The notes under the pieces were generated by a model. That model made no database searches and was not told the DNA's origin. It worked only from the letters and a program-made list of their open reading frames with translations. A stretch of DNA of 64,000 nt. Origin: a virus (taxonomy: Duplodnaviria > Caudoviricetes). The translations under genes were made by a program, and so were the position numbers. Every line of letters starts with the position of its first letter. Position 1 is the stretch's first letter. Location: positions 1 to 64,000 of the IMG/VR virus record IMGVR_UViG_3300045594_000287. The stretch is one strand, 5' to 3'. Shown here piece by piece: positions 2,779-44,957 of the stretch.

Positions 2779-2840
2779 GTATATCTCTCCCTTATTTATG
2801 AGTAGTAGTAATTAGTTTTTGATTTATTTGAGGGTTCTGT

Positions 2841-2875
2841 GTCCCCCTCACCCATGTGTTAAAGGGAGGGAGACC
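2841..2875 (-). repeat. GC-rich hairpin repeat, copy 2
   Basis: Matches 2338-2371. Confidence 0.7.
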
Positions 2876-3031
2876 AAACCCATTAGGTCCTCGAATGACC
2901 AAAAGAAGTAGTAAGATAGGAGGTGGACGAAACAACAATGTAGATAGAAAGCAACGGACGAGTATCGAAAGCATTCGGGGTTAAGGGCGTCGTCCGTAGG
3001 ACGCCCAACCCCATCCCCCGTAGGGGGGGGG

Positions 3032-4723
3032 TCAGAATGCAGCAGAAACAGCATACTGGGAATAACGGGAAGAACGGCGAGTTGAGGTGGAAGCATTGGA
3101 GTTGCTAGAGAAGTTCCGGGCCGGCTGAGAAGTTACCGGGGCTTTACCATAGAATGCCAGGACATCACTGTTCGTCTTCGGTGCAGAAAGATTGTCGATA
3201 TAGACATTCTCTACCGTCTCAAAACGGGAAAGAGCGACGTACATCTGACCAGCCGCCCAGAGGTTCTGAGCATAGATGTTGCCAGATTTGTAAGTCTGAC
3301 CCTGAGACTTATGAATCGTAATGGCATAACCAAGAGCGAGGGGGATCTGCTTATAAGAACCAATGGTTACCCGGGAACCATTCTTATAGCCACAGATCTC
3401 CCACTCGTTGATGCCAATACCGCAACGACCAGCATCATCGAAGTCGACAGTAACCCCATCCCGGGAGAAACCGACAACCGTGCCGAACTGGCCATTCTTC
3501 AAACCAGCATCATTGATGTTGGTCATGAGGATAACACGAGCGCCCACCTTCAGCGTGAGCTCTTCTGGAACGACACGATCCGTCTCCTTCACGATGCCAT
3601 CAGAATTAGCGAAGAAGGTCTTCTCCTGCCCAGAGAGCTTGCTGAGCTCACGAGCATTGATTGCTGCAGCAGTCTTCTTGAAACCGCATAGCGTTACTGC
3701 ATCGGCAACAGGAACCTTGGCGCAATGTTCCTGAATATACTTGACACCATCGCTGCCACCAAAACGAATGTCATTGAGGGCAGCTGCATATTCCGGATTC
3801 TTCTGGCGAACAATCTCCGTTAGAAGATGCTTCTCGAAGCCCATCGTCTCCCAAGCCTTAGTCTTAAAAGCAAGACCTTCCGGATTACCAGGGAAGCGAC
3901 GATTAAACTCAGCCTGTTCGTTGCGGCTTACGACAGGAGCCAGCTGCGCGAAATCGCCGCACAGGATAACCTGGATGTGATGTTTCTTACTCTCCATCCA
4001 CACCGCCTTCATGACAGCAGTAAAGATGTCAGCACGCACCATGCTGATCTCGTCGATGATCAGCACTGACACCTTCTCCAGGTTAGAAGTGTCAGCTGTA
4101 CCCTCTGCGATGCCGATGCCAAGCTTGAAGAAGCTGTGCAGCGTCACGCCCTCAATATGCAGCGCTGCGATACCAGTCGGGGCGCAGATCGCTACGCTCT
4201 TACGGCCACGACGACTAACGACCTCCTTGATATACTTCTTAATCAAGAAACTCTTGCCAGCGCCTGCACCGCCAGACAGGAATACATTCTTACCAGAACG
4301 CATTGCCTCGAGAGCTTCAGACTGGCCAGCAGTCAGTCCATCGACCAACTTTGCTGCCGCTTCTTTCTTCACCTCCTCTTTGATGTTATTTACCTTTTCC
4401 ACGACAACCTCATCCTTGAGGATGCCGATGCATTTATATTTCATACCGGCCTTCTTGCTAACCGGTATGAATTTATCTACGAATTCCTGGAGGTCTTCCT
4501 TGACCCCGCCTCTCTTGTCGAATGTATATTCGACGTCACGGCGACCGAGAAGATGAGCGTAAGCAATCATACGTTCAGTCTCTAAAACATTCTCATTGCT
4601 AATAGCAACCCTAAGTGCTTCATTTGCTTTCATGTTCTTTACTACTACAAAACTGTTGTCCATCATTTTAATCTCCTCTTTCTTGTCTACAGCTGTATTG
4701 CTAGAAGTGTTAATATATCTCAT
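3032..4723 (-). CDS. Pif1/RecD-family (SF1B) DNA helicase
   Basis: Motifs GGAGAGKS (Walker A), APTGIAA, IIDEISM (Walker B), GDFAQL, EIVRQ, YAITIHKSQGQT, YVALSR. Start ATG 4723 with AAGGAGG; an alternative in-frame start at about 4666 also has an RBS. Confidence 0.92.
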   Translation of the reverse strand: MRYINTSSNTAVDKKEEIKMMDNSFVVVKNMKANEALRVAISNENVLETERMIAYAHLLGRRDVEYTFDKRGGVKEDLQEFVDKFIPVSKKAGMKYKCIGILKDEVVVEKVNNIKEEVKKEAAAKLVDGLTAGQSEALEAMRSGKNVFLSGGAGAGKSFLIKKYIKEVVSRRGRKSVAICAPTGIAALHIEGVTLHSFFKLGIGIAEGTADTSNLEKVSVLIIDEISMVRADIFTAVMKAVWMESKKHHIQVILCGDFAQLAPVVSRNEQAEFNRRFPGNPEGLAFKTKAWETMGFEKHLLTEIVRQKNPEYAAALNDIRFGGSDGVKYIQEHCAKVPVADAVTLCGFKKTAAAINARELSKLSGQEKTFFANSDGIVKETDRVVPEELTLKVGARVILMTNINDAGLKNGQFGTVVGFSRDGVTVDFDDAGRCGIGINEWEICGYKNGSRVTIGSYKQIPLALGYAITIHKSQGQTYKSGNIYAQNLWAAGQMYVALSRFETVENVYIDNLSAPKTNSDVLAFYGKAPVTSQPARNFSSNSNASTSTRRSSRYSQYAVSAAF

Positions 4724-4733
4724 AATGTCCTCC

Positions 4734-4934
4734 TTAAAATAAAGAAAGCTGCTCGACAGGAGCAGCAGCCATGGCAGCGCGTGGAACATAAGCATAGAGA
4801 TCGCGCAATCCTCTCCATCCCCATTTTTTACAGAAAAAATAGATTGCCTGTTTCTCACTGTAAGCAGCAATCTGTTCCGATGCTCTAGATCCTTTTACCA
4901 GAGCACTGACGTTGTAAATGTTTTTGATTTTCAT
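4734..4934 (-). CDS. Hypothetical protein (66 aa)
   Basis: AGGGGG RBS; fills the gap between the RNAP C-terminal gene and the helicase. Confidence 0.65.
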   Translation of the reverse strand: MKIKNIYNVSALVKGSRASEQIAAYSEKQAIYFFCKKWGWRGLRDLYAYVPRAAMAAAPVEQLSLF

Positions 4935-4981
4935 GATATATTCCCCCTATAGAATATATAGAATTAACTCATCAGAGTGCT

Positions 4982-6913
4982 TTAGCCTACGACGCTTTCG
5001 AAATAGGCCATGCCATCAACTGGCACGCCATTCTCATCTACATCGTATGAAGGAGCAACCTGTTCTTTGGCAGGCTTGCAATAACGACCACTGAGACGAC
5101 CGGTGCGGCGAACCTCATGTTTTGCACTGGACACTTTCATATCTAACGGCTCAACGAACTCGGTATCCTGGCTATCTTTCACGTCAGACATGAGTACGAG
5201 AGCAACCTTATGATTCTTCTTCACCTGCACCCCATGCTTACCGGAGACTTTCATCTCAAGTTCGCAGGAAATCATGCCGGTAATTTTGCCAGTCTTATTA
5301 CGGTACATTGCCTGAATCGATTCCGGATTATCAGAGCCCAAAGAAGTTCTGAATTTACCGATCATCTTTCCATCAACGACAATTGCATCGTGAAGATCTT
5401 TGCCGTCTTGCTGCTTACGATATGGAATCAATGTAACTTCCTTGTCTTCCATCTTTTTCATAACAGCTGTAAGATTTTCATCTCCCCAATCACTCCCCTT
5501 AGTGATAAAGCAGAGAACAGATCCATCCGGATCTTCAGGAGCGAGAACTTCTTTGATGAGCTTAGAAGCTACAAGATGTCCATTCTTGTTCTTGCGAATA
5601 GTGAATTCACCATCAAGCTCATCATCGGCAGCTTTTGCGAATTTGCCATCATCGCCATAAGCCTCGCCGAAAACGAACTCTGCCACATCGCCTTCCTTGA
5701 AGGTGCAGCTGATGAGTTTGTCCTCGGTATACTTTGCAACCTTGTCTTCATCCTTGAAGATCTGCAGCACGAATGCGAGGAACTCCTTATCCAAGACGCC
5801 ATGCGCATAACTGGAATACTGACTGTCTTCTTTGTTATCTCCAACCATGATGACAGATACCAGTACGGCAGCCCGCATGGATGCACTGAGATCGCGCATC
5901 TGGAATCTCAGAGTCTTGGCAAGGTAGGTATAGAAGGGTGCCATATCCTTTTTGAGATCCTTGATATGAGCCTCAGCCTTATAGCGATCAGGATACCGAT
6001 CACGAATATCTCTGATGCGAGTTGCCTGCACATTAGAAATAGAGCTATAAGCCTGTTTTAAGAACTCTGCCACTTGGCAAGCGCCGGTATGTTTTGGCAC
6101 GACAGATGTTTCCATCCATGCCAAAGTACGCTGGCTGAACTGCTGCTTCATCTTTGCAAACTCCTTTGCAAACGTGCAGCCTGCCTTCAATGACAGAATC
6201 CGGAGATCCTGCTGGAAGTCATGAATAACACGCACATCCTGTTTTGTGCCATCCTGAAGCTTCTTGACAGTCGTATATGACGGTCTCTCATCACATACGT
6301 ACTTAACACCGCAGAATCTCTTCCAGCCATGCTCCTTGCGGCCGATAAACTCATCGTGATCCGGTTCAAGGATGATTCTCTTCTTATCCTCATCCATGCA
6401 ATGACGCCAATCGACTTCGAAATTGAAATCGTTGTCGCTGCGTTTCCTTGACATCATTTTGACATTGCTCATGGCCTGGGCATAATCAAGGCAGAGTACC
6501 GGATCACTTGTCTTGAATGTATCAATCGACATCTCCTGCCCCATGCGGCCATTTGCATGAAGATCAGTTAATGCTGCCATGCAATTGTTCTTCGTAAGCT
6601 TCATCTCACGAGAATTCGCGACAATTACATCCGACTTCAAGATATCAATTCCCTGTGTGGGAATGTTATTATCTTGAACTTCCGGATTGCCAAGCGGAGA
6701 CACATATTCTGTTTCTCCACCGTTATTGCCAAAGCCAATATTGAAGATGGCTTTGACATCCTCCGGAACTTCATCTTTTGCAGCATTAAGCTGTACTAAT
6801 GCCTCTGAGAACGGAAGATGACGTACCGTTACTCTACCGACATCCAGGCTGTCATTAGCCAGGATATTTTTGAGGGCTTGGTTTCCAATATTGTAGTTCA
6901 TAACGTTTTCCAT
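4982..6913 (-). CDS. C-terminal part of a split YonO/RdRP-like RNA polymerase (643 aa)
   Basis: NDSLDVGRVT resembles the post-catalytic N..LG.I helix, and QEMSIDTFKT resembles the (A/V)(V/I)D(F/Y)AKT motif of cellular RdRPs and YonO. Own AGGAGG RBS; directly downstream of the DFDGD gene. Confidence 0.7.
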   Translation of the reverse strand: MENVMNYNIGNQALKNILANDSLDVGRVTVRHLPFSEALVQLNAAKDEVPEDVKAIFNIGFGNNGGETEYVSPLGNPEVQDNNIPTQGIDILKSDVIVANSREMKLTKNNCMAALTDLHANGRMGQEMSIDTFKTSDPVLCLDYAQAMSNVKMMSRKRSDNDFNFEVDWRHCMDEDKKRIILEPDHDEFIGRKEHGWKRFCGVKYVCDERPSYTTVKKLQDGTKQDVRVIHDFQQDLRILSLKAGCTFAKEFAKMKQQFSQRTLAWMETSVVPKHTGACQVAEFLKQAYSSISNVQATRIRDIRDRYPDRYKAEAHIKDLKKDMAPFYTYLAKTLRFQMRDLSASMRAAVLVSVIMVGDNKEDSQYSSYAHGVLDKEFLAFVLQIFKDEDKVAKYTEDKLISCTFKEGDVAEFVFGEAYGDDGKFAKAADDELDGEFTIRKNKNGHLVASKLIKEVLAPEDPDGSVLCFITKGSDWGDENLTAVMKKMEDKEVTLIPYRKQQDGKDLHDAIVVDGKMIGKFRTSLGSDNPESIQAMYRNKTGKITGMISCELEMKVSGKHGVQVKKNHKVALVLMSDVKDSQDTEFVEPLDMKVSSAKHEVRRTGRLSGRYCKPAKEQVAPSYDVDENGVPVDGMAYFESVVG

Positions 6914-6962
6914 GATATATTCCTCCTAATAAATAGAGCCGCCCATTGCTGAGCGGCCAACC

Positions 6963-9026
6963 TTATAATGCTGCCTCGAAAGCCTTGTCATCAGCTTTTC
7001 TCTTGACATCCGTATCAATCACGACAGCAAGAGGAGTTACATTCCAGAGAATATCGACAAAGCCGATCTCTCCGTCACTTTCCTCCCCATATCCAACACA
7101 TGCATCCCCATCGAAGTCCATGCCTGCCAGCATATTCTTCAACTCTTCCAGAGCTGGGATGGCAATGTTACCACCGGTCATTTTGCCAGCCTGCTCGATA
7201 ATCAACTTCTTCTGATAAGCAGTCAACTTCTCAGAAGCATTGACTCTGCGAGCATACTCAGCTAAAGAAACCGGTACAGCCTTTGCAAACTCTCTGAAAT
7301 GCATCTTTGGATATTTCACCAGAATCATGCGATTCCATTTAGCTGCATTGGCAACTGGGCTGATCACTTCACATTCTCCATCCTTGGAATACGTGAGAAT
7401 CCGTGCACCGAAGTCGGCGGCAGGATCTGTCGTCAATTTCATATATGCACCAGGCACAGTTACATTCAAGCGATTGAATGCAGTGACCAATCCTTTGCAA
7501 GCATTGTCAATATTACTACGGAAAATCGGTGCATAGTTTTCCAAAACGAATTTTGGAGCAATGCGTCCGATCAGTTGTGGAATATCGACATTTCCACTAC
7601 TGATCTCCGCATACGTCGGTGCGGATCCTTCATCTGCAAGCAGACGCTCACGAATGCTCTCAATCATGGCACGCATCTTACGCTCATACCAGACCTTCGT
7701 GGCTACCGGATCGATAACCATTGCAGACTGGATGCTCTGCGACGATGCGTTTGCGCCAGATTCTGGATGATGTTCAGTATGAGACATATCCAATGCATTC
7801 AGGCCCGACATCCTTGTCAAGTCAAACGGAGCCTTGAGCCCATTGAGATCAGTAGCATAATCCGCTGCTTCCTCGTCGCTCTTCCTTGAATCGACAATGC
7901 GCACCCACTTCCCTGCATATGCGCCTTCTTTGCCTTTAGAAAACACCGTCTTTGTGAACTTCGCCTGGATTTTATCATCTACCTCGTCACGATAGATAGT
8001 AACCATTTTAGTATGGTCAACAGAAATGCGATAATTGACAAACTCTTTCAAGTAAGCCCTCATCACGCACTGAGCCATGACTTTGCAGGTCCAAGGCCTG
8101 GTCTGCAGCGAAATGCCAGCTGGTGCATCAGGCATAACGAAATACCTCTTCGGATCTATCGCAGTAAGGCACTCTGCAACGAATTCCGATGCGACCATTG
8201 CGAATCCATCCTTGAACTCATTTCCAAGATCATCCTTGATCTTGCCCATGTATACAACGAAATTGCCTACATTAAGGAGTGGGGTGCTGCTGGCGCAGAA
8301 CGCTGATAAACGAACATTGCCCTGAGCTACTTCTTTTGGAGAAGCAACGCATGCCAACTGGCAGAGCTGATCACTTGCACCATATGTGACCTTGCTCCAG
8401 ATTGCCTTCCTATCAACTCCAGGAAGGTTGCATGCCGGCATAGTCAGTGTGCTCAACTTAAGCTGGCCTGCTGTACCGCGTGCACAGCTGTCTACATCAT
8501 TGTAGACAATAACGTCTTCTTTAACGTTACCATCGGCATTGAATACCTCAGACAATGGGGCTTCGTTATCCTTTTCTTCACCGAAGCGAAGAAGATCAAT
8601 AAGAACGCCATCATTCTCTGGATTAACCGTGTAGAATCTTTCGTTTACACCATCCTCACGATCCGGCACACGATAAATAACCTGATCGAGGATATATGCC
8701 ATGGCTTTATTCTGAATGGAAACATCCAGAATACCAACGGTATATCTTTGCACCATCTGTGGGCAATCTGCTTCAGTAGTTGCAGCTACTAAAACATTTT
8801 CCTGCATTGGCAACAAGGACGTCTCCAAACTTGGAGTAACGGTGATCAGCATACGCTGAACGCTGTCCTCATTGAAAACGAGCGACGTAGCCTTAAAGCT
8901 AGTCTCTGGCCGACTAAGTGCAAGACTGCGCATTGCCTCTACCTGGTGGGCAGAGAGCACGACTTTCTTTCCAAGAGCACGCTGCTCCCGGATCTTCTCG
9001 TTGCGATGGCTAATAAACTTACTCAT
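6963..9026 (-). CDS. YonO/QDE-1-like double-psi beta-barrel RNA polymerase, catalytic N-terminal part (687 aa)
   Basis: Ordered motifs FKDGFAM (cf. TDG), LQTRPWTCK (cf. Q.R...K), KYPKMH (cf. K/R-x-P-x-x-H) and AGMDFDGD (DFDGD at nt 7104-7118). Start ATG 9026 with AAGGAGG. Confidence 0.85.
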   Translation of the reverse strand: MSKFISHRNEKIREQRALGKKVVLSAHQVEAMRSLALSRPETSFKATSLVFNEDSVQRMLITVTPSLETSLLPMQENVLVAATTEADCPQMVQRYTVGILDVSIQNKAMAYILDQVIYRVPDREDGVNERFYTVNPENDGVLIDLLRFGEEKDNEAPLSEVFNADGNVKEDVIVYNDVDSCARGTAGQLKLSTLTMPACNLPGVDRKAIWSKVTYGASDQLCQLACVASPKEVAQGNVRLSAFCASSTPLLNVGNFVVYMGKIKDDLGNEFKDGFAMVASEFVAECLTAIDPKRYFVMPDAPAGISLQTRPWTCKVMAQCVMRAYLKEFVNYRISVDHTKMVTIYRDEVDDKIQAKFTKTVFSKGKEGAYAGKWVRIVDSRKSDEEAADYATDLNGLKAPFDLTRMSGLNALDMSHTEHHPESGANASSQSIQSAMVIDPVATKVWYERKMRAMIESIRERLLADEGSAPTYAEISSGNVDIPQLIGRIAPKFVLENYAPIFRSNIDNACKGLVTAFNRLNVTVPGAYMKLTTDPAADFGARILTYSKDGECEVISPVANAAKWNRMILVKYPKMHFREFAKAVPVSLAEYARRVNASEKLTAYQKKLIIEQAGKMTGGNIAIPALEELKNMLAGMDFDGDACVGYGEESDGEIGFVDILWNVTPLAVVIDTDVKRKADDKAFEAAL

Positions 9027-9039
9027 TATGGTTTCCTCC

Positions 9040-9068
9040 TTTAATGGATAGACCACCTATGCTATAAT
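9040..9068 (+). promoter_or_regulatory. sigmaA-type extended -10 promoter P1 (antisense to the early operon)
   Basis: TG-C-TATAAT at 9060-9068; weak -35 TTTAAT at 17-bp spacing. Confidence 0.65.
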
Positions 9069-9105
9069 GAGTAATGCATAGGCGGGGTTAAATGGATAGA
9101 CATAG

Positions 9106-9141
9106 TTAAATGGATGGGACATTGTGCGATGACTTACTCAT
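9106..9141 (-). CDS. Putative leader uORF MSKSSHNVPSI sharing the start context of the RNAP gene
   Basis: AGGAAACCATAATGAGTAAGT is identical to the RNAP start context; stop at 9106-9108. Confidence 0.35.
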   Translation of the reverse strand: MSKSSHNVPSI

Positions 9142-9199
9142 TATGGTTTCCTTCTACCTTGTTTATGTACGAGAATACGGTTGCAGCCATATTCTCACG

Positions 9200-9228
9200 A
9201 GCCGGTTGTTGTCGCAGCCGGCTTTTTT
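9200..9228 (+). terminator. Intrinsic terminator of sRNA 1
   Basis: AGCCGGTTG-loop-CAGCCGGCT plus T run; the stem mismatch is a G-U wobble only on the + strand. Confidence 0.8.
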
Positions 9229-9248
9229 GTGCAAAGAGAAGGATTCCC

Positions 9249-9277
9249 TTGTCTGTAAGGGGTATCAGTGCTATAAT
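9249..9277 (+). promoter_or_regulatory. sigmaA promoter P2
   Basis: TTGTCT-17 bp-TATAAT with extended TG. Confidence 0.8.
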
Positions 9278-9283
9278 GAGCAA

Positions 9284-9383
9284 TGCATAAGTGTCTCCTA
9301 TTGAGTGGGTATGATTAACTATGCAACTGAGAGCGGTATTGCTGTTCTCCACGAAGTCGACTGCTGAGCACAGTCGGCTTTTT
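9284..9383 (+). ncRNA. Putative sRNA 2 (about 100 nt), same 3' architecture as sRNA 1
   Basis: Promoter P2, GAGA..TTCTC hairpin, terminator AAGTCGACTG/CAGTCGGCTT plus T run (9354-9383). Confidence 0.6.
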
Positions 9384-9416
9384 GTGTTACAAGAAGTTAA
9401 TCTCGGCTGCTGTGGT

Positions 9417-9445
9417 TTGAATGTGCCCTTCCGGCATGGTAGTTT
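9417..9445 (+). promoter_or_regulatory. Possible sigmaA promoter P3 (antisense to 9467-9688)
   Basis: TTGAAT-17 bp-TAGTTT with extended TG. Confidence 0.45.
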
Positions 9446-9466
9446 AACGTCATTCCGGACGATAGC

Positions 9467-9688
9467 TTACTGGATCTCGGCAGTGATGGTGTATTCTCCA
9501 TCTTCATAACTCTGGGATACAATCTTCATAGGAGCACCGCTCGTCTGACGGTATACGTCAACAATTGCTGCGCGGCGGGCCATCATCCTCCCCTGAGCAC
9601 CACCCATATTGACCGGTGCCATACCATGACCGACTACGATCATAGCAACGAGAGTAACAACGACTTTGAAACCTTTGAAATTAAACAT
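9467..9688 (-). CDS. Small protein with N-terminal hydrophobic/signal segment (73 aa)
   Basis: ATG 9688 right after the leader repeat RBS; MFNFKGFKVVVTLVAMIVVG. Confidence 0.7.
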   Translation of the reverse strand: MFNFKGFKVVVTLVAMIVVGHGMAPVNMGGAQGRMMARRAAIVDVYRQTSGAPMKIVSQSYEDGEYTITAEIQ

Positions 9689-9693
9689 AACGT

Positions 9694-9730
9694 ACCTCTT
9701 TCTCCCCGTATACGCCGATAGGACAGCAAT
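9694..9730 (-). repeat. 37-bp leader/RBS repeat, copy 1 (ATTGCTGTCCTATCGGCGTATACGGGGAGAAAGAGGT)
   Basis: Identical to 9993-10029, similar to 10243-10276. Confidence 0.9.
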
Positions 9731-9733
9731 CAA

Positions 9734-9814
9734 TTAATGGAGACGCTCTCCATGATCATCAAGATCAAGAAAAGCCTTAATAAATTCCCAAACCTCTTTA
9801 ATAAACTTTTTCAT
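9734..9814 (-). CDS. 26-aa amphipathic peptide MKKFIKEVWEFIKAFLDLDDHGERLH (not in the ORF track)
   Basis: Strong GAGGAGGA RBS; fills the gap between neighbouring elements. Confidence 0.6.
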   Translation of the reverse strand: MKKFIKEVWEFIKAFLDLDDHGERLH

Positions 9815-9828
9815 AACAGTTCCTCCTC

Positions 9829-9987
9829 TTACTTGTTAAGTTTTGCAATGTTTGCTGCCTGCGGATCACCATTCTTCCAAGCATCAGAAGCATCTTCAAA
9901 AGATACATCTTCCTCTGCCTTCACCATGTAGCCAATGGAAGCAGAAATACCAACAGCAGCGATAGCGACAAAAATGTAGATAGCCAT
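9829..9987 (-). CDS. Small membrane protein (52 aa)
   Basis: ATG 9987 after the leader repeat; N-terminal hydrophobic helix MAIYIFVAIAAVGISASIGYMV. Confidence 0.7.
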   Translation of the reverse strand: MAIYIFVAIAAVGISASIGYMVKAEEDVSFEDASDAWKNGDPQAANIAKLNK

Positions 9988-9992
9988 GATAA

Positions 9993-10029
9993 ACCTCTTT
10001 CTCCCCGTATACGCCGATAGGACAGCAAT
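9993..10029 (-). repeat. 37-bp leader/RBS repeat, copy 2
   Basis: Identical to 9694-9730. Confidence 0.9.
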
Positions 10030-10036
10030 AAAAAGA

Positions 10037-10237
10037 TTAAGCGTTTTCGACAATGTAACCACGGAAGATGTAATCACGAATCGTATCCGCGGTTACCTTC
10101 CCAGAGAAGTAGTCGTCAATTACCTTTTCCGTCTCTTTTCTGAGGCGAACAGGGAACTGTCCCATACGACCATTCTCCATAGGCAGCTCATACTGAACTC
10201 TGTAGTTGGATCCCTCAAAATCAAACGAAGTAAACAT
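10037..10237 (-). CDS. Hypothetical protein (66 aa)
   Basis: ATG 10237 after leader repeat copy 3. Confidence 0.7.
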   Translation of the reverse strand: MFTSFDFEGSNYRVQYELPMENGRMGQFPVRLRKETEKVIDDYFSGKVTADTIRDYIFRGYIVENA

Positions 10238-10242
10238 GATGT

Positions 10243-10276
10243 ACCTCTTTCTCCCCGTAGTCAGATAGGACAACAT
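10243..10276 (-). repeat. Leader/RBS repeat, divergent copy 3
   Basis: TGTCCTATCTGACTACGGGGAGAAAGAGGT. Confidence 0.8.
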
Positions 10277-10396
10277 CAGAATAAATACTCTTAACCCCTG
10301 TCTCTCACAGGGACGCCCATTCAACTCCGGTTTTCACGAGGCGCTACCTTAGTAGTTGGGTCGTCGTCTTTTATTTATAGTGCGTGACGTCAGCAC

Positions 10397-10425
10397 TTGC
10401 GTTTACCATAAGTAGGTGATAGAAT
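10397..10425 (+). promoter_or_regulatory. sigmaA promoter P4 (antisense to peptide gene 10426-10578)
   Basis: TTGCGT-17 bp-TAGAAT with extended TG. Confidence 0.75.
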
Positions 10426-10578
10426 TTATCTGTATTGTTCCACCACGACAGTCTGGAAGTTATCACTTCCATCAATAGCTGCAGGCGCCATAAGCACCAT
10501 TGCACCTATCAGTGCCGCCATAACGGCAGCGCCAATTCTGTTGAGGGTACGAGTTTTACCAAATACTTTAATAGTCAT
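10426..10578 (-). CDS. 50-aa single-TM peptide MTIKVFGKTRTLNRIGAAVMAALIGAMVLMAPAAI... (type I toxin-like; not in the ORF track)
   Basis: Translated by hand; AAAGGAG RBS; N-terminus similar to 10714-10851. Confidence 0.7.
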   Translation of the reverse strand: MTIKVFGKTRTLNRIGAAVMAALIGAMVLMAPAAIDGSDNFQTVVVEQYR

Positions 10579-10638
10579 GATTGCATTCTCCTTTCATGAC
10601 GCACTGCCCTAACATATCGTAAGTATGCTAGGGCTTTT
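10432..10638 (+). ncRNA. Putative cis-antisense RNA 3 covering peptide gene 10426-10578 and its RBS
   Basis: P4 upstream; hairpin GCCCTA..TAGGGC plus TTTT at 10606-10638 (one A-C mismatch on this strand). Confidence 0.5.
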
Positions 10639-10665
10639 CCTTATAGAAGGCAGTTTTTATTACCC

Positions 10666-10694
10666 TGGACATGCTCAGGCCCAGCTGTTACAAT
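10666..10694 (+). promoter_or_regulatory. sigmaA promoter P5 (antisense to peptide gene 10714-10851)
   Basis: TGGACA-17 bp-TACAAT with extended TG. Confidence 0.75.
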
Positions 10695-10700
10695 AAGAGA

Positions 10701-10914
10701 TGCAAGATATTGTTTACTGTGCGATACGAGCTAACTGCATAATATGCCCATACCAATCAGCACCTACCAGTGCTGCTACAGTTGCTATAGTATATACAGC
10801 TGCAGTAGCACGGTCTAATGAACGGATCTTGCCTAAAAATTTGATAGTCATGATTGAATCATCCTTTCTTCATGACGCCTTGCCCTAGCGTCCCTATGTG
10901 CTAGGGCTTTTTTT
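10701..10914 (+). ncRNA. Putative cis-antisense RNA 4 covering peptide gene 10714-10851 and its RBS
   Basis: P5 upstream; terminator GCCCTAGC/GCTAGGGC plus T7 at 10882-10914. Confidence 0.6.
10714..10851 (-). CDS. 45-aa single-TM peptide MTIKFLGKIRSLDRATAAVYTIATVAALVGA... (type I toxin-like; not in the ORF track)
   Basis: Translated by hand; AGAAAGGA RBS; leader shared with 10426-10578. Confidence 0.7.
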   Translation of the reverse strand: MTIKFLGKIRSLDRATAAVYTIATVAALVGADWYGHIMQLARIAQ

Positions 10915-11191
10915 GTTCTTTCTTTTCGCTCAAAAGAACTTCATTGAGAACACTACCCGGGGGCTCAAAAGCCCCCATTGATGTTTCATAAAAAGTACCG
11001 GGTCCCTCGATAAATTTTTTATAATTTTCGAATCCCTATAGGCGTTTTCTGAAAATATTTCATAACATTTTTTCTTTTCCTATAAATTTTCAGTATATTC
11101 GGTAAATTTCGGGCGGAGGTAACTTTTTAGATCCCAGATGAAGTACAGAATCTACGAAGCGTAATATTCCTGTATGAGGAGGGAAAAGAAT

Positions 11192-11479
11192 ATGTCAAAA
11201 GTATGGGTTAATGGAAAAGGGCCTGTAGAAGGCTCATTCTCTTTCGAAGTTGCACTTGATGAAACGGCACAGCCGCCTGTATATATCATTGAGGGAGTCT
11301 TTTCGTGTGCTCATGGGTACTATGAAGAGATCGACAGTTTGGTTAACGAGAGGTATCGTCTGGACCGTGTACGCGTGTACAAGGAAGTGTACGGATCCGA
11401 TGAGGATACAATCTTGTATTATTTTCGGGCTGGAGACTACGGAATGAGAGACTTTAAGGAGGAAAAGAAAGATGGCTGA
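11192..11479 (+). CDS. Hypothetical protein (95 aa)
   Basis: ATG 11192 with GAGGAGGG RBS; overlaps the start of the next gene. Confidence 0.75.
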   Translation: MSKVWVNGKGPVEGSFSFEVALDETAQPPVYIIEGVFSCAHGYYEEIDSLVNERYRLDRVRVYKEVYGSDEDTILYYFRAGDYGMRDFKEEKKDG

Positions 11480-12158
11480 AGAAAATGACGATGAGCTTCA
11501 GCTCATCGATGACTCTGGAGAGGTTGAAGCTTCTTTGGCAAGAACGAATCGAGAGAACTTTGAACGTTCGTTGGTTACGCAGAACCTTTGGCAGCATTCG
11601 GCGAAGGGCCTGGAAGCGAAACGTGCTGCCATGACTATGTTGTCGACGAAGACAGGTATGTATGCTCGTATTCCTTTACTTTGCAAAGGAGATGATTGTC
11701 CATACACAGATACGTGTCAGCTTCTCCCCTATGACCTGGCTCCTGTAGGCGAGTATTGTCCTCAGGAAACTGCTCAGATCGAGTTGAGAGCCAACGCGTA
11801 TGCTCAGGACTTCGATGTCGACACAATGAGTTTTACAGATAAAACTCTACTAAATGAAATCATCGGTTTCGACATCATGCTTGAACGCTGCAGAGCACTG
11901 ATGGCTAAGGAAGGCACGCCAGTGGTCGAAGTAGTAGCTGGGATAGCGGATAACGGAGACGAGATTAAACAACCTGCTGTGTCTAAAGCATGGGAAGCTT
12001 ACGAGAAGATCTCGAAGAAGCGAGATGCTGCTTATCAGCTCATGATGATGACGCGTAGGGATAACAAGAACAACTCTGACGAAGAACAGTCAGCTCTTTC
12101 TGCTATGTTGGACAACGTGATAACGGAACAAGATGTAGAGGAAGAGAAAGATAAGTAG
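11472..12158 (+). CDS. Hypothetical protein with Cys4 cluster, possible terminase small subunit
   Basis: CKGDDCPYTDTC...YCP, helical C-terminal half with PAV..WE; near the start of the packaging block. The function is positional inference. Confidence 0.45.
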   Translation: MAEENDDELQLIDDSGEVEASLARTNRENFERSLVTQNLWQHSAKGLEAKRAAMTMLSTKTGMYARIPLLCKGDDCPYTDTCQLLPYDLAPVGEYCPQETAQIELRANAYAQDFDVDTMSFTDKTLLNEIIGFDIMLERCRALMAKEGTPVVEVVAGIADNGDEIKQPAVSKAWEAYEKISKKRDAAYQLMMMTRRDNKNNSDEEQSALSAMLDNVITEQDVEEEKDK

Positions 12159-38516: not shown

Positions 38517-41500
38517 TTGACTAGAGAAGAACGCTTAAGAAGACAACAGGATATGACGAATAGAGACACTTCTTTGCGAAGCACTCTGACAATGGCTGGA
38601 GAGGCTGCTGCGGCATTTGGTGCTACAGCAGCCTTTATTCGTCGTACGGGCAATATGCCTAAAATAGCCAAAGGCATGGACATGGCGAAAGATTTCGTCT
38701 CTGCATCTGGCAATTACCTACCCAAAAAAGCCTGGAACGACGTAACATTTACAGATACCAAAAAGATGTTCAGGGATGCAAAAAGTGAACTTGCAAAAAT
38801 CAGAGAAGATTACAGGCTCCATCCTGTTCGTATAGATCCATATAGCAACACTAGTCTCGTCGGTACTATCCACGAGATGAATAGCGTACTTGCAGTTCCT
38901 GGTCGTACATCAGAAGCCGTCTGGAGGCAAAATACAGTAACCGCAGCTGGCCGTGACTTTATGGCTCAGAACTTCGCTAACCTGCCAAGAACATCGCAGG
39001 AGAAGTTCAATAACTTTATTTCTGCAGTTTCTGCGAGCCTTGACGATAGAAGAAAAATAGCGGCTGTCCGCAAGATGGCTAAATTTGATCCGGGCGAAGG
39101 TGCAATTTCCGACCTACTGCTTACTCATATGAAGCAAGCTGCAGCAAGTGACAAGGCTCATGAGGCGACTAAAGACATCACCCTCCAGAATATGAGATCT
39201 GCCAATAAGCAGTTCATGAAGGTAGATAACCTCAAAAAGGTATTTGGGTATAGAAAAGGCCCGAATGAAAAGTCGCTTGATTTTGTAAGAAAACTCACCA
39301 AGGAAGACGATGCTACCGTAGGTGATCTCCTCGATCCAAAGAATCGAGATAAAGTTGCACATATCCCTGGCTATAGAGCCAAAAAGGACCAGCAGGTAGG
39401 CGAATCTGCAATTGAGATCCTTAAAAACATGTATAAGAACTTGAAGGACAAGGATGCTGCCAATCACACGAACGAGGCAGCTGAATTCCTTAAGGTGTAC
39501 GTGGATAAAGGAAGACTCAAGAAAACGGATGGCGGAGAACTTTATAGCTTCAACTCCCCCGCCCATATTCGTGATAAATTCCTTGATTTCGGAGCAGGAA
39601 CACTCCCCGGTCAGATATTAAAACTTCGTTATTTCGAGTATAACCACAAAGCCCCTGTATTCCAATACATTGGATTAGGCAGCAGTGACCCATTACTCGC
39701 AGCAGCGGTAGGCAATAACGGCAAAGCTCGCAGCAGCGAGGTCGGCGGAAACTACCTTCGTATCAAGAACAATATCTATCACATGAACGAGAATGGCGAA
39801 GCGAATGAGGTAAAAGGCCTCGAAGACTTCCGCTATAGTTCTGGTAAGTTTGGTCCTGGAGCTAGAGTGCTCCGCCAGATAATTGGCGATACGAGATACG
39901 CTGATGGAGGGAACTTCATCACAAGGAAGCTGGACCTGTTCAGAGATCGTGAAGAGAATAATGGCAAGGCTCCAGGCAATGGCCTGTTAAGCGTCATCAC
40001 GAAAAGGGATGATGAAGACTGGCGCGGCAATGTCTTCAAGAGATTCCTCTCCCCTACTTTTGAGCAAAAAAAAGCTTTCCAACAAGGATTGATCGGGTCC
40101 GATATCTCATACTCACTGGACTACCTCAACAAAGCCGAGCATATGCAAAACATTATTGCCAGTAATGTATTTGCATTATCTAGAGAGGTAGCTTCTCAGT
40201 TGTCGAAAAATACGACAGGCCGAGCGCAGCAGCTTTTTGAAGCCCTCGGTGAGAGCGACGATGCCAAGATGCTTGACAAGATTATGCACCTCAGCAGCGG
40301 TTCATTGAGCACTCGAGGAGACTATATCAATGCCGATCTGACAAACTGGGTTGAGCAGTTCAATGCAAATCCTCAGGAAACATTGAACATGATCCGGCTT
40401 AAAGATGATAAGGAACATTTGAACATAAGCACGAGTATTTTTGATCTTCCTTCTACTAAGGGGAATAACCAGACTAAAGATGCTTATGAGATCCTGAGAA
40501 CAGAAGTCGCAAAAGAAGCGATGCTTCAGTATGCCAGCCAAGCATCATCTGATGTATCAAAGAAAAATTATAAAGCGCTCATTGACTTAGTAGGCAGCCT
40601 GGATACTGATATGAGTAAAAAGGTTGAAGCAAGGCATATGGCGGCCCTTGCTATATTCCAAGACAAGACATGGATAAACGAGAGAATAAAGGGCGGTCTT
40701 ACGGATGACGGTTACCGTTCTCTTATGAATAATGTAGAGATGGTAATGAACGGATCCAATGATGAAGAGGATAAGTTTGTCAGAAAATCTTTTAAAGAAG
40801 TTGGGAATGCGATAATCTCACCGCTAGAACAGCGAGGCGAAGAACTCACACTTGAAGGACCAGCTCAATATAACTCCTGGATAGCCATGAGAAAGATGAC
40901 TACCCCACTCGACTTTATCCGCAGCCTTAATGACTCAACTAAGGCAAAAGCTGTCGGTAAGAGAATGTTTACGCAGTTCTGGGCCGGCAGGGATAATCCG
41001 GAAGATATAACTGAAGCTACGTTAGTACCATACTTCATGCTGAGCCGTTTATCAGATGCAATGAATACCGTTGGCCTCGGATTCTCAAAAGAATCCATGG
41101 GCAGTGTTGGACAACTGACTAAAAATATCATGCTGAAGCGTGTACTTCCGGCTGCTGTAGCATCTACCTATCTTGAATGGGGCGATGATACTTCCCAGGA
41201 GCTTACCGGCACATCTGTAAGTGGAGCAATGGCCAATGGCATTGCCAATATAGACCTTGCATCCCGCAAGGTAATGGATACTTTTGGCCTCACTGACTGG
41301 TTGAAAGGCGAGAAGTCAATCAACCCGATCATGCAGTACTGGGGCGGCCATGGTGAATTCCAAAGCTGGGCAGAACGCAAGAAGTATTACGAATCCGGAT
41401 ATGATCCGGTACGTAAGGGTGCATGGTGGACATTCGGTGGTGTAAATGAGGCTCGTGGCGGAGAGATCCAATACTGGCAGCCTTCATATGCACGTCGTAT

Positions 41501-44500
41501 TAACAGCGACTATGAAGACAAAGCTTTGTATGATGGTTATTTCGACAAATGGTCTCACAGCTGGTTGCCTACCCCATCGAATCCACTCTCCCCTATTCGA
41601 GCACTATTAAATCCATATTGGCTAGAAGAAAAACATGCAGACGATAGGCCGTATGCAATATCCGGCCCTTTGTTCCAGCAAGGAACGCCCTGGGGCGCGA
41701 TCCTTAATCCAACACTTGGACAAATTATAAAACCTCAGAAGGAACTGCATCCATGGAGATTGAATAACGGCATCGATGCAAAAAACCTTATTCATGAGGT
41801 TAATGAATATATTCACGCTAAGGCGAGAGACCTCGGCGGGCAGAATATGATCGCCTTGAAAGGCAACACGGCTACCCCTGTCAGATTTACTTCGTATGAT
41901 GCACCTACGGAAGATACGACATCTACATCTGTTCAGACAAAGAACGGGATGTTCTCTGACCCAAGAAGAGGAGTTTATGGAGTATATGATGGCGACGGTG
42001 GTCCAAATCCCGCAACTGGATTCACGAAATTCGGTAAAGGGAGCGCAGCCGCTGCATTCGTAGGAGCTCAATCCGGCTTGCCTGGATTACGAGATATGAT
42101 ACGGGCGAAGCTTTCTGGCGGATCCGGGCAGATGCCGGTACAAAATGGTGACATCATGCAGGACAGTAGAGGCAATCTCGGTGTATATCTACAACAGGAC
42201 AAGCCGGCTCCTATTGACAGCAGCTTGAACCTTGAAGACGAAATCGCAATGGATCGCATGATCCGTGGTGACATGGGTGGTATTAAGCGCACGGTCGGTG
42301 AAATCGTTCATGCTTTGAATCCAACCACGATTATCCAAAGATTGAACGACGGTACAAAGAAGAAAGCCGGTCAATCTGTATCACTTCATACGGCAACCAC
42401 TGATGAATTTGATACGGAGCAAGGCTTTATCAGTCCTGATAAGCTTAAAAATTATCGTCCTTCTCAGGGGATGCAACTCTTGGATAACCCAGATGATATG
42501 GCCGAACTTGTCCATGCCGGTAAAGGCTATGACTACGTCCATGATGCAGCCGTATCATGGCGCTTGATTTCTGGTATCTACGGCTATATGGCCGGAGCAG
42601 CTACTGGATTTGGAGTAGATAATAGGAAAAAGGTTGCAGACTCATCAGACATGACATCGTTCAGCAGAACCTTCTGGGATTCAAATCTCGGAGGCGCCGG
42701 CGGAGATATCATGGAGATTGCACGTCGTTTCATTCCTGACTTCCGTCGTTCAAATCGTGTGAGTCCTTTAATGAATGAGATGCCAGATTGGTTGCCTGAG
42801 CGATTCAAGTATGGTGATCCATATACCCTTCTTCCAAAAGGTGAAATGCGATTACCAGGTAAAGGTTATCTAGCGCTAAATAAGCTACATCCTGATCAGT
42901 TTGGTACATATGGTGCATATGATCGATTCAAAATTTTGGCTGATATCGCACCGATGACCCCAGAATACAAGATGTGGAGAACGATTGCCCAGAAGACTGT
43001 GACGGATCCAGACCTCAAAGAGGATATGGATGATATTCGTCAACGTGTTTCTCAACAGGGTAAGAAACATGATTTCTACGAATATAAATCCGTAGGACAT
43101 GGTTTGGACTACGAGACCGTAACGGTATCCAGCGTTTTGGGATATGGTAAATTTCGTTCGGGATCCAGTATCTATAAAGTCGCCGGAGTAAAAGTTCGCG
43201 GCAATGATAACGAGACTATGGACCAAGTGCTTGGGCGGTATCTCCATGTGGGACAAACCGTAACAGTAGCCGTAGATTCAAACCAGGCATATCGGACAAA
43301 TAGAGATACAGACCATACGATAGACGCTGCTGTGTTTGTCGGTGGAGATAATATCTCTAAACAGATGCTTAAGAACGGTGATGCCACGGTTCGCAAAGGA
43401 GACACGTCTTCTGCTGCTATTCTGGCTAACTATGGGCCGATCCAAAGAACAATCGGCTGGGTATCAGAATTGGTTGCTCACACGGATATTCCATGGCTGA
43501 GCGATCAGTTCTTGCGGGTCCGCTCCCCTCTCGAATCGTACAGAGCAGAACAAGTATATGGCACTCCATATCAATCATGGGATCACCCAATTGACTCTTA
43601 TCTAATGCCGGCATGGAATCGTTCCATTCATGGACGTTCCATTATGGGCACTATTGGTACTTATGCATACCAAGCATTACGCGGTGTACCTATGAGTGCC
43701 TGGGATAAGAAAGCACTATCTGCTGCTTATCTCTTCGGAAATCGCGGTGCCTTCATGGGCGCAGCGGTAACTAAAATGTTCTTTGCCAATGATGCGGAAA
43801 AAGTCATGAAGGGCGCGGATATAGGATCGAATCTGGTATCACTAGGGCATGTATTGACTGGTGGCAATAGCTACTTGGACGAAATGTCAAGCGCAGCTTC
43901 AATCGGAATGTCTGTTGCCAAGTACTTTGAAAAAGACAGTGGTAAGGGTGCCATTGCCGGAGCTCTCGTTGGAGCTGCGTATCGCACAGCAAAAGGACAA
44001 GCCGGCAAAGAATGGATACCAGAAAGAACACAGAAAAAATGGGAAATGCAGGATTACTTTGATCGTCTTACCTATATCAAATACACTGCTCTTTATAAGG
44101 CTGCAGCTAAAAAGGCTAAGTCTGAAGAAGGCGTAGACGTAGACAATCTCGTATCGTCAAGAGATTATAGGGAAGAAAAGCGTCAGAGTGCCCTCGAACG
44201 TTTCAAGGGTATAAAAGATGCTCTGCGCGGAACCAAGAGCAGTTACGAGCACAAGCAGATGATGAAGCTCTTGACAGGAAAAATCAATGCGCTCGACAAT
44301 GACACTACGATCATTGAAGGTGGAAAATATACCCATTCCGCTCTTATATACAAGCAAGCAGCTGAAGCTACGATGTATGCTCTGAAGAAAGGGTCTTCAT
44401 GGTCGCAGATCATCACAGCGTTGCCTACCAACGACAGAGAGTATTTTACAGAGTTCGTAAAAGAACGAGACCCTGGCAAGCGCTCTGATATATTGAAAAC

Positions 44501-44957
44501 AGCCTCCCCTGCTCTGAAAAAGGCCCTCAACCTGGCCTGGGGCAAGGATGTCAAGAAAGATGAAGATAACGAGACTTATTTTGCGAAGCATAACCTGCCG
44601 CAACTCAACTGGGCTGGTTGGCGCCCGGATACGGATCTCAAAAACGTAGAAGTGAAAACTATTGCCAATGAAGGTATGAGCTTATCTGATTTTGGTTATT
44701 ACGAATCGCAGCTTAGGGATCCGGACGTTATAAACGCCCCGTCTATTGTCAAACCAAAGCACAAGAACTCCCAAATGAATGGGGTGCGACGTAACCTGCA
44801 GAAGATCCTTGAAGGTCAAGGGTTAAAGAATGTGAGCGTCAACGTAACTGACAATGCTTTTGACGGACACCAAATAAAAGCAGATATAGGACTATTTACT
44901 GGCAAAAGACAAATTAACGGAATGGTAAAAGACCAGATGGACGAGAAAACAAGATAA
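38517..44957 (+). CDS. Tape-measure-like virion protein (2146 aa) with a degenerate thermonuclease (SNase) domain
   Basis: Follows the chaperones; largely helical, Gly/Ala-rich segments near the C-terminus; SNase-like segment at about 43110-43385. Confidence 0.65.
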   Translation: MTREERLRRQQDMTNRDTSLRSTLTMAGEAAAAFGATAAFIRRTGNMPKIAKGMDMAKDFVSASGNYLPKKAWNDVTFTDTKKMFRDAKSELAKIREDYRLHPVRIDPYSNTSLVGTIHEMNSVLAVPGRTSEAVWRQNTVTAAGRDFMAQNFANLPRTSQEKFNNFISAVSASLDDRRKIAAVRKMAKFDPGEGAISDLLLTHMKQAAASDKAHEATKDITLQNMRSANKQFMKVDNLKKVFGYRKGPNEKSLDFVRKLTKEDDATVGDLLDPKNRDKVAHIPGYRAKKDQQVGESAIEILKNMYKNLKDKDAANHTNEAAEFLKVYVDKGRLKKTDGGELYSFNSPAHIRDKFLDFGAGTLPGQILKLRYFEYNHKAPVFQYIGLGSSDPLLAAAVGNNGKARSSEVGGNYLRIKNNIYHMNENGEANEVKGLEDFRYSSGKFGPGARVLRQIIGDTRYADGGNFITRKLDLFRDREENNGKAPGNGLLSVITKRDDEDWRGNVFKRFLSPTFEQKKAFQQGLIGSDISYSLDYLNKAEHMQNIIASNVFALSREVASQLSKNTTGRAQQLFEALGESDDAKMLDKIMHLSSGSLSTRGDYINADLTNWVEQFNANPQETLNMIRLKDDKEHLNISTSIFDLPSTKGNNQTKDAYEILRTEVAKEAMLQYASQASSDVSKKNYKALIDLVGSLDTDMSKKVEARHMAALAIFQDKTWINERIKGGLTDDGYRSLMNNVEMVMNGSNDEEDKFVRKSFKEVGNAIISPLEQRGEELTLEGPAQYNSWIAMRKMTTPLDFIRSLNDSTKAKAVGKRMFTQFWAGRDNPEDITEATLVPYFMLSRLSDAMNTVGLGFSKESMGSVGQLTKNIMLKRVLPAAVASTYLEWGDDTSQELTGTSVSGAMANGIANIDLASRKVMDTFGLTDWLKGEKSINPIMQYWGGHGEFQSWAERKKYYESGYDPVRKGAWWTFGGVNEARGGEIQYWQPSYARRINSDYEDKALYDGYFDKWSHSWLPTPSNPLSPIRALLNPYWLEEKHADDRPYAISGPLFQQGTPWGAILNPTLGQIIKPQKELHPWRLNNGIDAKNLIHEVNEYIHAKARDLGGQNMIALKGNTATPVRFTSYDAPTEDTTSTSVQTKNGMFSDPRRGVYGVYDGDGGPNPATGFTKFGKGSAAAAFVGAQSGLPGLRDMIRAKLSGGSGQMPVQNGDIMQDSRGNLGVYLQQDKPAPIDSSLNLEDEIAMDRMIRGDMGGIKRTVGEIVHALNPTTIIQRLNDGTKKKAGQSVSLHTATTDEFDTEQGFISPDKLKNYRPSQGMQLLDNPDDMAELVHAGKGYDYVHDAAVSWRLISGIYGYMAGAATGFGVDNRKKVADSSDMTSFSRTFWDSNLGGAGGDIMEIARRFIPDFRRSNRVSPLMNEMPDWLPERFKYGDPYTLLPKGEMRLPGKGYLALNKLHPDQFGTYGAYDRFKILADIAPMTPEYKMWRTIAQKTVTDPDLKEDMDDIRQRVSQQGKKHDFYEYKSVGHGLDYETVTVSSVLGYGKFRSGSSIYKVAGVKVRGNDNETMDQVLGRYLHVGQTVTVAVDSNQAYRTNRDTDHTIDAAVFVGGDNISKQMLKNGDATVRKGDTSSAAILANYGPIQRTIGWVSELVAHTDIPWLSDQFLRVRSPLESYRAEQVYGTPYQSWDHPIDSYLMPAWNRSIHGRSIMGTIGTYAYQALRGVPMSAWDKKALSAAYLFGNRGAFMGAAVTKMFFANDAEKVMKGADIGSNLVSLGHVLTGGNSYLDEMSSAASIGMSVAKYFEKDSGKGAIAGALVGAAYRTAKGQAGKEWIPERTQKKWEMQDYFDRLTYIKYTALYKAAAKKAKSEEGVDVDNLVSSRDYREEKRQSALERFKGIKDALRGTKSSYEHKQMMKLLTGKINALDNDTTIIEGGKYTHSALIYKQAAEATMYALKKGSSWSQIITALPTNDREYFTEFVKERDPGKRSDILKTASPALKKALNLAWGKDVKKDEDNETYFAKHNLPQLNWAGWRPDTDLKNVEVKTIANEGMSLSDFGYYESQLRDPDVINAPSIVKPKHKNSQMNGVRRNLQKILEGQGLKNVSVNVTDNAFDGHQIKADIGLFTGKRQINGMVKDQMDEKTR

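Follow-up and report, generated by a model that had tools for sequence, protein, structure and literature searches.

A probable two-subunit phage RNA polymerase of the QDE-1/YonO-like branch encoded by two adjacent genes

A stretch of 64,000 nucleotides (nt) of viral DNA (positions 1 to 64,000 of IMG/VR record IMGVR_UViG_3300045594_000287, Caudoviricetes; this whole stretch is referred to here as the window) carries two co-directional open reading frames (ORFs) on its minus strand, ORF1 and ORF2, whose products are very likely the two subunits of one phage RNA polymerase (RNAP) of the QDE-1/RDR/YonO-like branch of two-barrel polymerases. The QDE-1/YonO/crAss branch has been treated in the literature as the single-subunit branch of the two-barrel RNA polymerases, and a resemblance of YonO to the single-chain ancestor of the cellular enzymes has been proposed. 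No description of a clean and conserved two-gene polymerase of the QDE-1/YonO type was found in the open literature searched, and the sequence comparisons outlined below indicate that the two-gene split is a genuine two-subunit form of an enzyme that has been described as a single chain.

An earlier note on this DNA, prepared from the letters and the translated ORFs, had placed the second ORF 49 nt from the first, with an AGGAGG ribosome-binding site of its own and a hairpin in the gap, and each of these features was found. The genes, their start signals, and the spacer between them are as follows.

6963..9026, minus strand: ORF1, RNAP N-subunit, 687 amino acids (aa), stop included; ATG at 9026, stop at 6963-6965
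9035..9040, minus strand: ORF1 ribosome-binding site AGGAGG, 8 nt before the ATG at 9026
6914..6962, minus strand: spacer of 49 nt; the frames of ORF1 and ORF2 differ (49 mod 3 = 1)
6937..6958, minus strand: terminator-like hairpin with a stem of 9 base pairs (6 of them G-C) and a 4-nt loop, followed by the T-rich tail CTATTTATTA
6922..6927, minus strand: ORF2 ribosome-binding site AGGAGG, 8 nt before the ATG at 6913
4982..6913, minus strand: ORF2, RNAP C-subunit, 643 aa, stop included; ATG at 6913

A GTG located 10 codons upstream provides an alternative start for ORF1 that would yield a protein of 697 aa; the database copy of the ORF1 protein is the 687-aa form.

ORF1 and ORF2 as parts of one polymerase

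The ORF1 product comprises an N-terminal domain, a first double-psi beta-barrel (DPBB-B), connector helices, a second barrel (DPBB-A), and the DFDGD loop. The two barrel domains that form one active site are thus both found in ORF1. The earlier note had listed DG, Q-x-R..K, K-x-P, and DFDGD motifs in this ORF along with a stop 46 residues after the last Asp, and all are present on the minus strand, with the C-terminus (residue 687) lying 46 residues past D641. Their positions are as follows.

8082..8210, minus strand: active-site residues of the first barrel, D273-G274, Q308, R310, and K315; counterparts by order and spacing of QDE-1 D709, R738, and K743
7827..7853, minus strand: TDLNGLKAP motif, residues 392-400, including K398-A-P400; D393, N395, and K398 nearly invariant
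7299..7316, minus strand: KYPKMH motif of the second barrel, residues 571-576; counterpart of QDE-1 R962-x-P964, with Lys for Arg
7104..7118, minus strand: DFDGD metal-binding loop with D637, D639, and D641, nearly invariant across 48 relatives

In an alignment of 48 sequences whose members are 18-41% identical to ORF1, the columns corresponding to R239, D273, G274, G304, Q308, R310, K315, D393, N395, K398, S428, Q430, P573, G635, D637, D639, and D641 are invariant or at least 90% conserved, and the motifs of ORF1 are therefore not a product of chance. Within the motif Q308-x-R310...K315, the Arg and Lys are separated by 5 residues, as they are in QDE-1. The eight invariant active-site residues of the superfamily are, in QDE-1 numbering, D709, R738, K743, R962, P964, D1007, D1009, and D1011 (PMC2919709). 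All eight have counterparts in ORF1 in the same order (D273, R310, K315, K571, P573, D637, D639, and D641), the sole substitution being Lys for Arg at K571. It should be noted that this mapping was made by order and spacing, with offsets within the range of the structural alignment, and not by residue-level superposition.

The AlphaFold2 model of ORF1, built from the 48-sequence alignment, has a predicted local distance difference test (pLDDT) value of 91.6 and a predicted template modeling (pTM) value of 0.89. A Foldseek search of the PDB with this model placed QDE-1 at the top (expectation value, E, 4e-10), then plant RDR2, and then gene product (gp) 66 of phi14:2, a crAss-like phage (3e-4). 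Structural comparisons gave the following scores.

QDE-1 (2j7n_A): 20.9, root-mean-square deviation (rmsd) 3.8 A over 424 aligned residues, model residues 40-674 against QDE-1 487-1036
Maize RDR2: 19.5
P23-45-type gp62/gp64: 11.5-11.8
P23-45 gp96: 10.4
crAss gp66: 10.3
E. coli beta-prime 345-489: 8.2, rmsd 2.4 A, model residues 521-665; this segment is the barrel that carries NADFDGD

The fold of ORF1 is thus nearer to those of QDE-1 and the RDR enzymes than to those of multisubunit or P23-45-type enzymes. At the level of sequence, a PDB search with profiles returned QDE-1 as its sole match (E 1.3). ORF1 ends at QDE-1 position 1036-1042, and the portion of QDE-1 beyond residue ~1040 (~360 residues) has no counterpart in it. 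As judged from the model, then, ORF1 is the N-terminal two thirds of a QDE-1-type polymerase.

The product of ORF2 begins with N-terminal helices and a long helix, continues with a candidate clamp or funnel region made up of helices, and ends in beta-rich C-terminal domains and a disordered tail. The earlier note had it opening with NDSLDVG..T and SIDTFKT; these lie at residues 20-29 and 129-135, respectively, and both are conserved in relatives.

6827..6856, minus strand: NDSLDVGRVT motif, ORF2 residues 20-29; family consensus NxNxSVGxVT, and LSIGEIT in gp99
6509..6592, minus strand: helix of 28 residues predicted at ORF2 residues 108-135, with GRMGQEMSIDTFKT at its end; consensus RMxQExTIDAAKT, and RFMQGWSIDFAKTG in gp99

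Here gp99 denotes the 1218-aa protein of Bacillus phage 0305phi8-36, the nearest named sequence relative of the window enzyme, whose annotation is that of a hypothetical DNA-directed RNAP with similarity to Pfam RdRP. Presumably it is the 0305phi8-36 protein ABS83659.1, which Iyer et al. (2021) describe as YonO-like with both barrels in a single subunit. The AlphaFold2 model of ORF2 has a pLDDT of 77, with residues 172-201 disordered. Helix 108-135, which includes SIDTFKT, is modeled at pLDDT 86-93 and aligns with SIDFAKTG of gp99; it is a candidate bridge helix.

That ORF2 represents the missing C-terminal part of the polymerase, as had been proposed from the window itself, was borne out by its collinearity with fused relatives and by a joint profile that aligns through the junction with gp99. 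Downstream of ORF1's two nearest relatives lie homologs of ORF2 (27% identity, E 1e-33), which share with it NxxxDVGxxT and GRxxQExxIDxxKT. Moreover, hidden Markov models placed the ORF1 profile and then the ORF2 profile in about 20 proteins of 1100-1430 aa among 150 listed relatives. The alignment of fused proteins reads ...LAGxDFDxD...PxxVxI, about 30 residues, and then NxNxSVGxVT...RMxQExTIDAAKT, such that the end of ORF1 and the start of ORF2 flank a linker of ~30 residues. An hhalign comparison of the family alignment with gp99 gave 96.2% probability (E 2.6e-9) over 451 columns that span KYPKMH and the second barrel, GADTDGD, LSIGEIT, and SIDFAKTG and continue into the C-terminal region. 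Since gp99 itself scores above the cut-off of Pfam RdRP (PF05183; 69 bits, E 1.1e-20), it follows that two genes here divide between them the Pfam RdRP core found in a single-chain relative, and the best-conserved ORF2 motifs (NxSVGxVT and IDxxKT) fall inside that core in gp99. Only 2 of 23 family members reached Pfam RdRP themselves (E 1.8e-4), and the connection of the window enzyme to this model is an indirect one that runs via gp99. Collectively, these sequence relationships support the assignment of ORF2 as the rest of the enzyme, that is, the C-terminal part that is missing from ORF1.

The break between the genes and its distribution in the family

The earlier note had further argued that the break is neither a sequencing error nor the mark of a pseudogene, and independent assemblies agree with this in keeping the stop and the dedicated AGGAGG and ATG. 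A 9.7-kb contig from an independent 2024 wastewater study spans 4982-9056 with 27 substitutions (19 synonymous and 8 nonsynonymous) and no gap, and the junction is also crossed by another independent contig. The stop, the ribosome-binding site, and the ATG are left untouched by all of the listed variants, and no insertions or deletions are found inside either gene; the substitutions form the pattern expected, from sequence, if both genes are expressed and subject to purifying selection. Relatives of 1100-1500 aa in fused form do exist and metagenome assemblies can carry errors, and on these grounds the break might be read as a sequencing or assembly error, or as a nonsense mutation or recent pseudogenisation, in one gene of 1300 aa. 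This is extremely improbable, however, given the same stop and intact genes in contigs from independent studies, the spacer with its own AGGAGG and ATG and its differing frames, the end of about 65 cluster representatives at this same point, and the recurrence of the break in relatives of no more than 27-34% identity, where spacers of 40-73 nt occur in each of the three frame relations. Readings of the break as a pseudogene or an assembly error are in effect excluded because independent assemblies keep the stop, relatives share the break, and the variants are mostly synonymous in both genes.

Joining of the two products by readthrough, frameshift, an intein, or an intron was considered and rejected: the spacer is short, the frames vary among relatives, and the ORF2 frame is closed upstream of its ATG by a TAG five codons away. 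Differing frames together with this TAG mean that neither readthrough nor a simple frameshift can join ORF1 and ORF2. On the coding strand the spacer consists of TAA, GGTT, the hairpin GGCCGCTCAGCAATGGGCGGCT, CTATTTATT, AGGAGG, 8 nt, and ATG, and as RNA this stretch has a folding energy of -18.2 kcal/mol (z = -2.0). A hairpin followed by a U-run recurs in the spacers of three relatives (L001, L002, and L012) and is absent from that of a fourth (L013), giving 4 of 5 sequenced spacers with the window included. A wastewater contig (run X7) is missing the 15 nt at 6936-6950, by which one arm of the hairpin is gone and the stop, ribosome-binding site, ATG, and both genes remain intact; the hairpin is thus evidently not essential, since a natural variant that lacks part of it keeps both genes. 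It may reduce the transcription that continues into the C-subunit gene, or it may lend stability to the message upstream.

When 1.84 billion representatives were searched with a profile made from ORF1 and the two relatives nearest to it, 331 cluster representatives (50% identity) were retrieved at E up to 0.001, of which 84 remained at E up to 1e-30. Among the 150 relatives listed, a fused-protein profile identified 60 fused proteins (1100-1500 aa), 65 N-halves that end at profile position ~637, and about 20 proteins that extend partway into the C-half. The expectation that homologs would be split at the same place is therefore borne out by these N-halves and by five sequenced loci with an adjacent C-half, namely the window and L001, L002, L012, and L013. 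The earlier view that YonO- and QDE-1-type enzymes are single polypeptides holds in the literature searched but not in sequence databases, where split and fused forms are about equally common within this family. In the five loci the spacers measure 49 (window), 73 (L001), 71 (L002), 67 (L012), and 40 nt (L013), and an AGGAGG site is found in all except the last. In a sixth contig, a gene of 746 aa lies 69 nt downstream. An IS-type transposase pair (HTH_Tnp_1 and rve) is located at 3454-4709 of L013, directly upstream of the split polymerase genes.

Breaks were found at three points in the family. Besides the break at ~637, one relative (L011, IMGVR_UViG_3300037400_004093; match 6001-8130 plus the ORF after it) has its cut about 170 residues later, with a protein of 1069 aa that includes an IDAAKT helix followed by one of 512 aa that carries the rest; the cut is located within the disordered stretch (172-201) of the ORF2 model. 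In addition, two representatives (P0105 and P0112) begin between the barrels and continue from there to the end. On a FastTree phylogeny of the N-half region from 128 representatives, which is unrooted, has some long branches, and may include a few wrong metagenomic gene calls, the labels split-at-637 and fused require at least 11-13 changes, and well-supported sister pairs (for example, P0018/P0027 and P0031/P0052) differ in state. Because the tree is unrooted, fission and fusion are indistinguishable.

Other searches placed few named proteins near the family. None of the ten family representatives looked up, nor any of their listed cluster members, bears an informative name. A tblastn search with ORF1, ORF2, and two fused relatives gave no match among 50,697 records of isolated phages. 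A word-indexed protein search retrieved only two ORF1 relatives; for ORF2 it retrieved no relative, also when the query was an alignment. A BFVD search returned one uncharacterised Myoviridae protein (E 3e-8), and the ORF2 model matched weakly in BFVD to the 1218-aa A7KVB1 (E 1e-3), which is probably gp99.

Proposed mechanism, rival explanations, and known enzymes

If the two products form one enzyme, ORF1 would supply the N-terminal domain, both barrels, and all eight of the active-site residues that are universally conserved, among them those of the DFDGD magnesium loop, and ORF2 would supply the NxSVGxVT motif, the long IDxxKT helix as the candidate bridge helix, a region of helices by which the clamp is probably completed, and the beta-rich C-terminal domains. 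Translation of each gene would start from a strong AGGAGG site of its own, and the active enzyme would assemble from the two products, with the C-subunit docking on the barrel subunit and laying helix 108-135 across the active-site cleft. The clamp would then comprise the helical region of ORF2 together with the connector helices (429-518) and C-terminal helices (656-687) of ORF1; clamp elements at the same relative positions have been described by Chaban et al. By analogy with YonO, crAss gp66, and P23-45 gp64, the last of which transcribes early and middle genes, the enzyme would most likely use DNA as its template and, without dependence on the host polymerase, transcribe a temporal class of the phage's genes. 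Heterodimer formation, DNA-dependent transcription, and the identity of the target genes are what we infer from these comparisons.

Several observations weigh against this assignment. Direct Pfam and PHROGs scans of ORF1 and ORF2 returned nothing, and the Pfam RdRP model matched neither at E up to 1. The ORF2 model had no significant match among solved structures, and no polymerase among its hits, so that the assignment of ORF2 rests on collinearity and one profile-profile alignment; this structural miss is unsurprising, as extended helices of this kind normally pack against the barrels. The template, whether DNA or RNA, and the target genes would be those suggested solely by characterised relatives. 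Further, no C-half or IDxxKT motif was found near the N-half, within the available sequence, in two members of the window's own small clade. These are the closest ORF1 relatives (L003, positions 6001-8430, P0006, 809 aa with an unrelated 136-aa tail; and L004, positions 10001-12043, P0154, 680 aa), and downstream of them lie only small genes, so that adjacency of the two halves does not hold throughout the family. In these phages the two halves may be unlinked, another partner may be used, or the N-half may act alone.

Carried over to the window, action of the N-half alone would make ORF1 a self-sufficient minimal polymerase and ORF2 an accessory factor, for example for promoter recognition, processivity, or regulation, instead of an obligatory part of the core. 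The presence of both barrels and all eight invariant catalytic residues in ORF1, the two close relatives (L003 and L004) without a C-half nearby, and the example of P23-45 gp96, a two-barrel RNAP that works without a clamp or C-terminal region, are consistent with this. It nevertheless appears unlikely, as ORF1 stops about 35 residues beyond the catalytic loop, at QDE-1 1036-1042, without a bridge helix and the NxSVGxVT and IDxxKT motifs of ORF2 belong to the Pfam RdRP core of gp99. Alternatively, the pair might not be a transcriptase at all: it could act as an RNA-dependent RNA polymerase, like QDE-1 and the RDR enzymes, or make replication primers with the Pif1/Dda-like helicase encoded by the next gene (3032-4870, minus strand). 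The nearest solved folds are indeed those of RNA-dependent enzymes, and QDE-1 is described as active on both DNA and RNA templates (PMC9508822). All phage members characterised so far (YonO, crAss gp66, P23-45 gp64, and gp96), however, are DNA-dependent transcriptases, and gene neighbourhood alone is weak evidence, which leaves a role other than transcription very unlikely. A heterodimeric transcriptase is preferred over both. A doubtful extension of it is that the post-barrel break serves as a regulated assembly point, at which the hairpin would limit readthrough by host RNAP into the C-subunit gene and active polymerase would form only after timed readthrough or antitermination, a temporal switch thus being built into the split enzyme itself. 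More generally, repeated fission or fusion at three fixed points, one of which matches by domain order the beta-prime break of Cyanobacteria and jumbo phages, would make the family a living model of the transition from single-chain to multisubunit enzymes.

Comparison with known enzymes places the window enzyme close to its eukaryotic relatives in fold and apart from them in gene structure. QDE-1 (Neurospora) and plant RDR2, eukaryotic RNA-silencing enzymes of PF05183, are single chains of ~1100-1400 aa, whereas the window enzyme continues in a second gene, is ~10-14% identical to them in sequence, and comes from a phage in which the template is probably DNA. Likewise, gp99 is one polypeptide that exceeds the Pfam RdRP cut-off, whereas the window enzyme is two polypeptides with nothing on Pfam. 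YonO of the Bacillus prophage SPbeta belongs, according to the literature, to the same branch of two-barrel RNAPs and serves as a functional model, being a phage DNA-dependent RNAP for late genes; it is a single chain of ~100 kDa, in contrast to the two-gene window enzyme, and has no detectable trigger-loop homology (Forrest et al.). No match to the 48-sequence profile was found at E up to 10 when SPbeta (NC_001884) was searched in six frames, and Pfam RdRP remains below its cut-off in B. subtilis. The crAss phi14:2 gp66, a 2180-aa virion protein, and P23-45 gp64 and gp96, the latter fused to a tape measure, are also single chains and are less similar to ORF1 than QDE-1 is. In crAss-like phages of the zeta group, RNAP ORFs are reported to be disrupted by stops and frameshifts, with expression that is not understood; unlike the family described here, these have not been reported as a clean, conserved two-gene form.

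A parallel to the position of the break comes from multisubunit enzymes. The beta-prime-like subunits of jumbo-phage virion and non-virion RNAPs share a split site directly after the catalytic barrel, and this site coincides with the cyanobacterial gamma/beta-prime split (PMC7598289). In the jumbo phages (phiKZ and AR9) and in Cyanobacteria the break thus follows the Asp-bearing barrel, which by domain order is the same position as the cut in the window. In phiKZ/AR9-type enzymes, however, the barrels reside on separate beta and beta-prime subunits, whereas in the window both are on ORF1 and only the post-barrel part is separate; moreover, the two kinds of enzyme belong to different major clades of the two-barrel superfamily. 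The shared cut position looks like recurrent use of a structurally permissive site and not common descent of the split.

The subunit boundary described here is thus unlike that between beta and beta-prime in keeping the barrels together and setting the post-barrel part apart. The naturally occurring split and fused pairs, some of them sister taxa, offer tests of which parts are needed for catalysis, of how two-barrel polymerases assemble without an alpha-like platform, and of whether fission is neutral or regulatory. Additionally, the family is large and lacks an informative name, and the two proteins from the window fall outside Pfam and PHROGs; family profiles could support annotation of a polymerase that is missed by current phage pipelines.

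The surrounding locus

The record from which the window was taken is a 107-kb fragment with an estimated completeness of 45%, and its structural module, of the contractile-tail type, comprises terminase, portal, capsid, and sheath. The phage is present in bioreactor-sludge and wastewater metagenomes from several studies; two runs labelled RNA-Seq probably contain DNA and hence provide no evidence of expression. The polymerase pair stands at the head of a leftward gene block, with the helicase gene noted above coming next.

Upstream of ORF1, a 21-nt copy of its translation-start region (GGAAACCATAATGAGTAAGT...; 9017-9037 and 9132-9152) is located 115 nt away and opens a short MSKSSHNVPSI frame, and the independent wastewater contig is collinear through both copies. 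An element of ~45 nt occurs three times further upstream (9660-9740, 9960-10040, and 10210-10290) with an exact core of 17 nt, ACCTCTTTCTCCCCGTA (at 9694, 9993, and 10243). Read on the minus strand, every copy consists of a conserved leader, then GGGGAGAAAGAGG, and then ATG, a sequence arrangement which suggests that three small leftward genes upstream of the polymerase share one cassette of promoter, leader, and ribosome-binding site. Terminator-like hairpins number 19 in the region 2800-11600, compared to 6.3 expected from shuffles (~3-fold), and strong plus-strand examples are found in the divergent region at 9.1-11 kb (9199-9224, 9353-9381, and 10882-10907).

Following the tail genes are three consecutive giant ORFs at 38517-44957 (2146 aa), 45063-53714 (2883 aa), and 53863-62130 (2755 aa). 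The first two have no PHROG match. The second contains HSGDIDID and was considered as a virion polymerase, which was rejected when hhalign against the family profile gave a probability of 0.1%. The third matches phrog_20474, labelled endolysin, over residues ~1986-2442 (E 1.8e-177).

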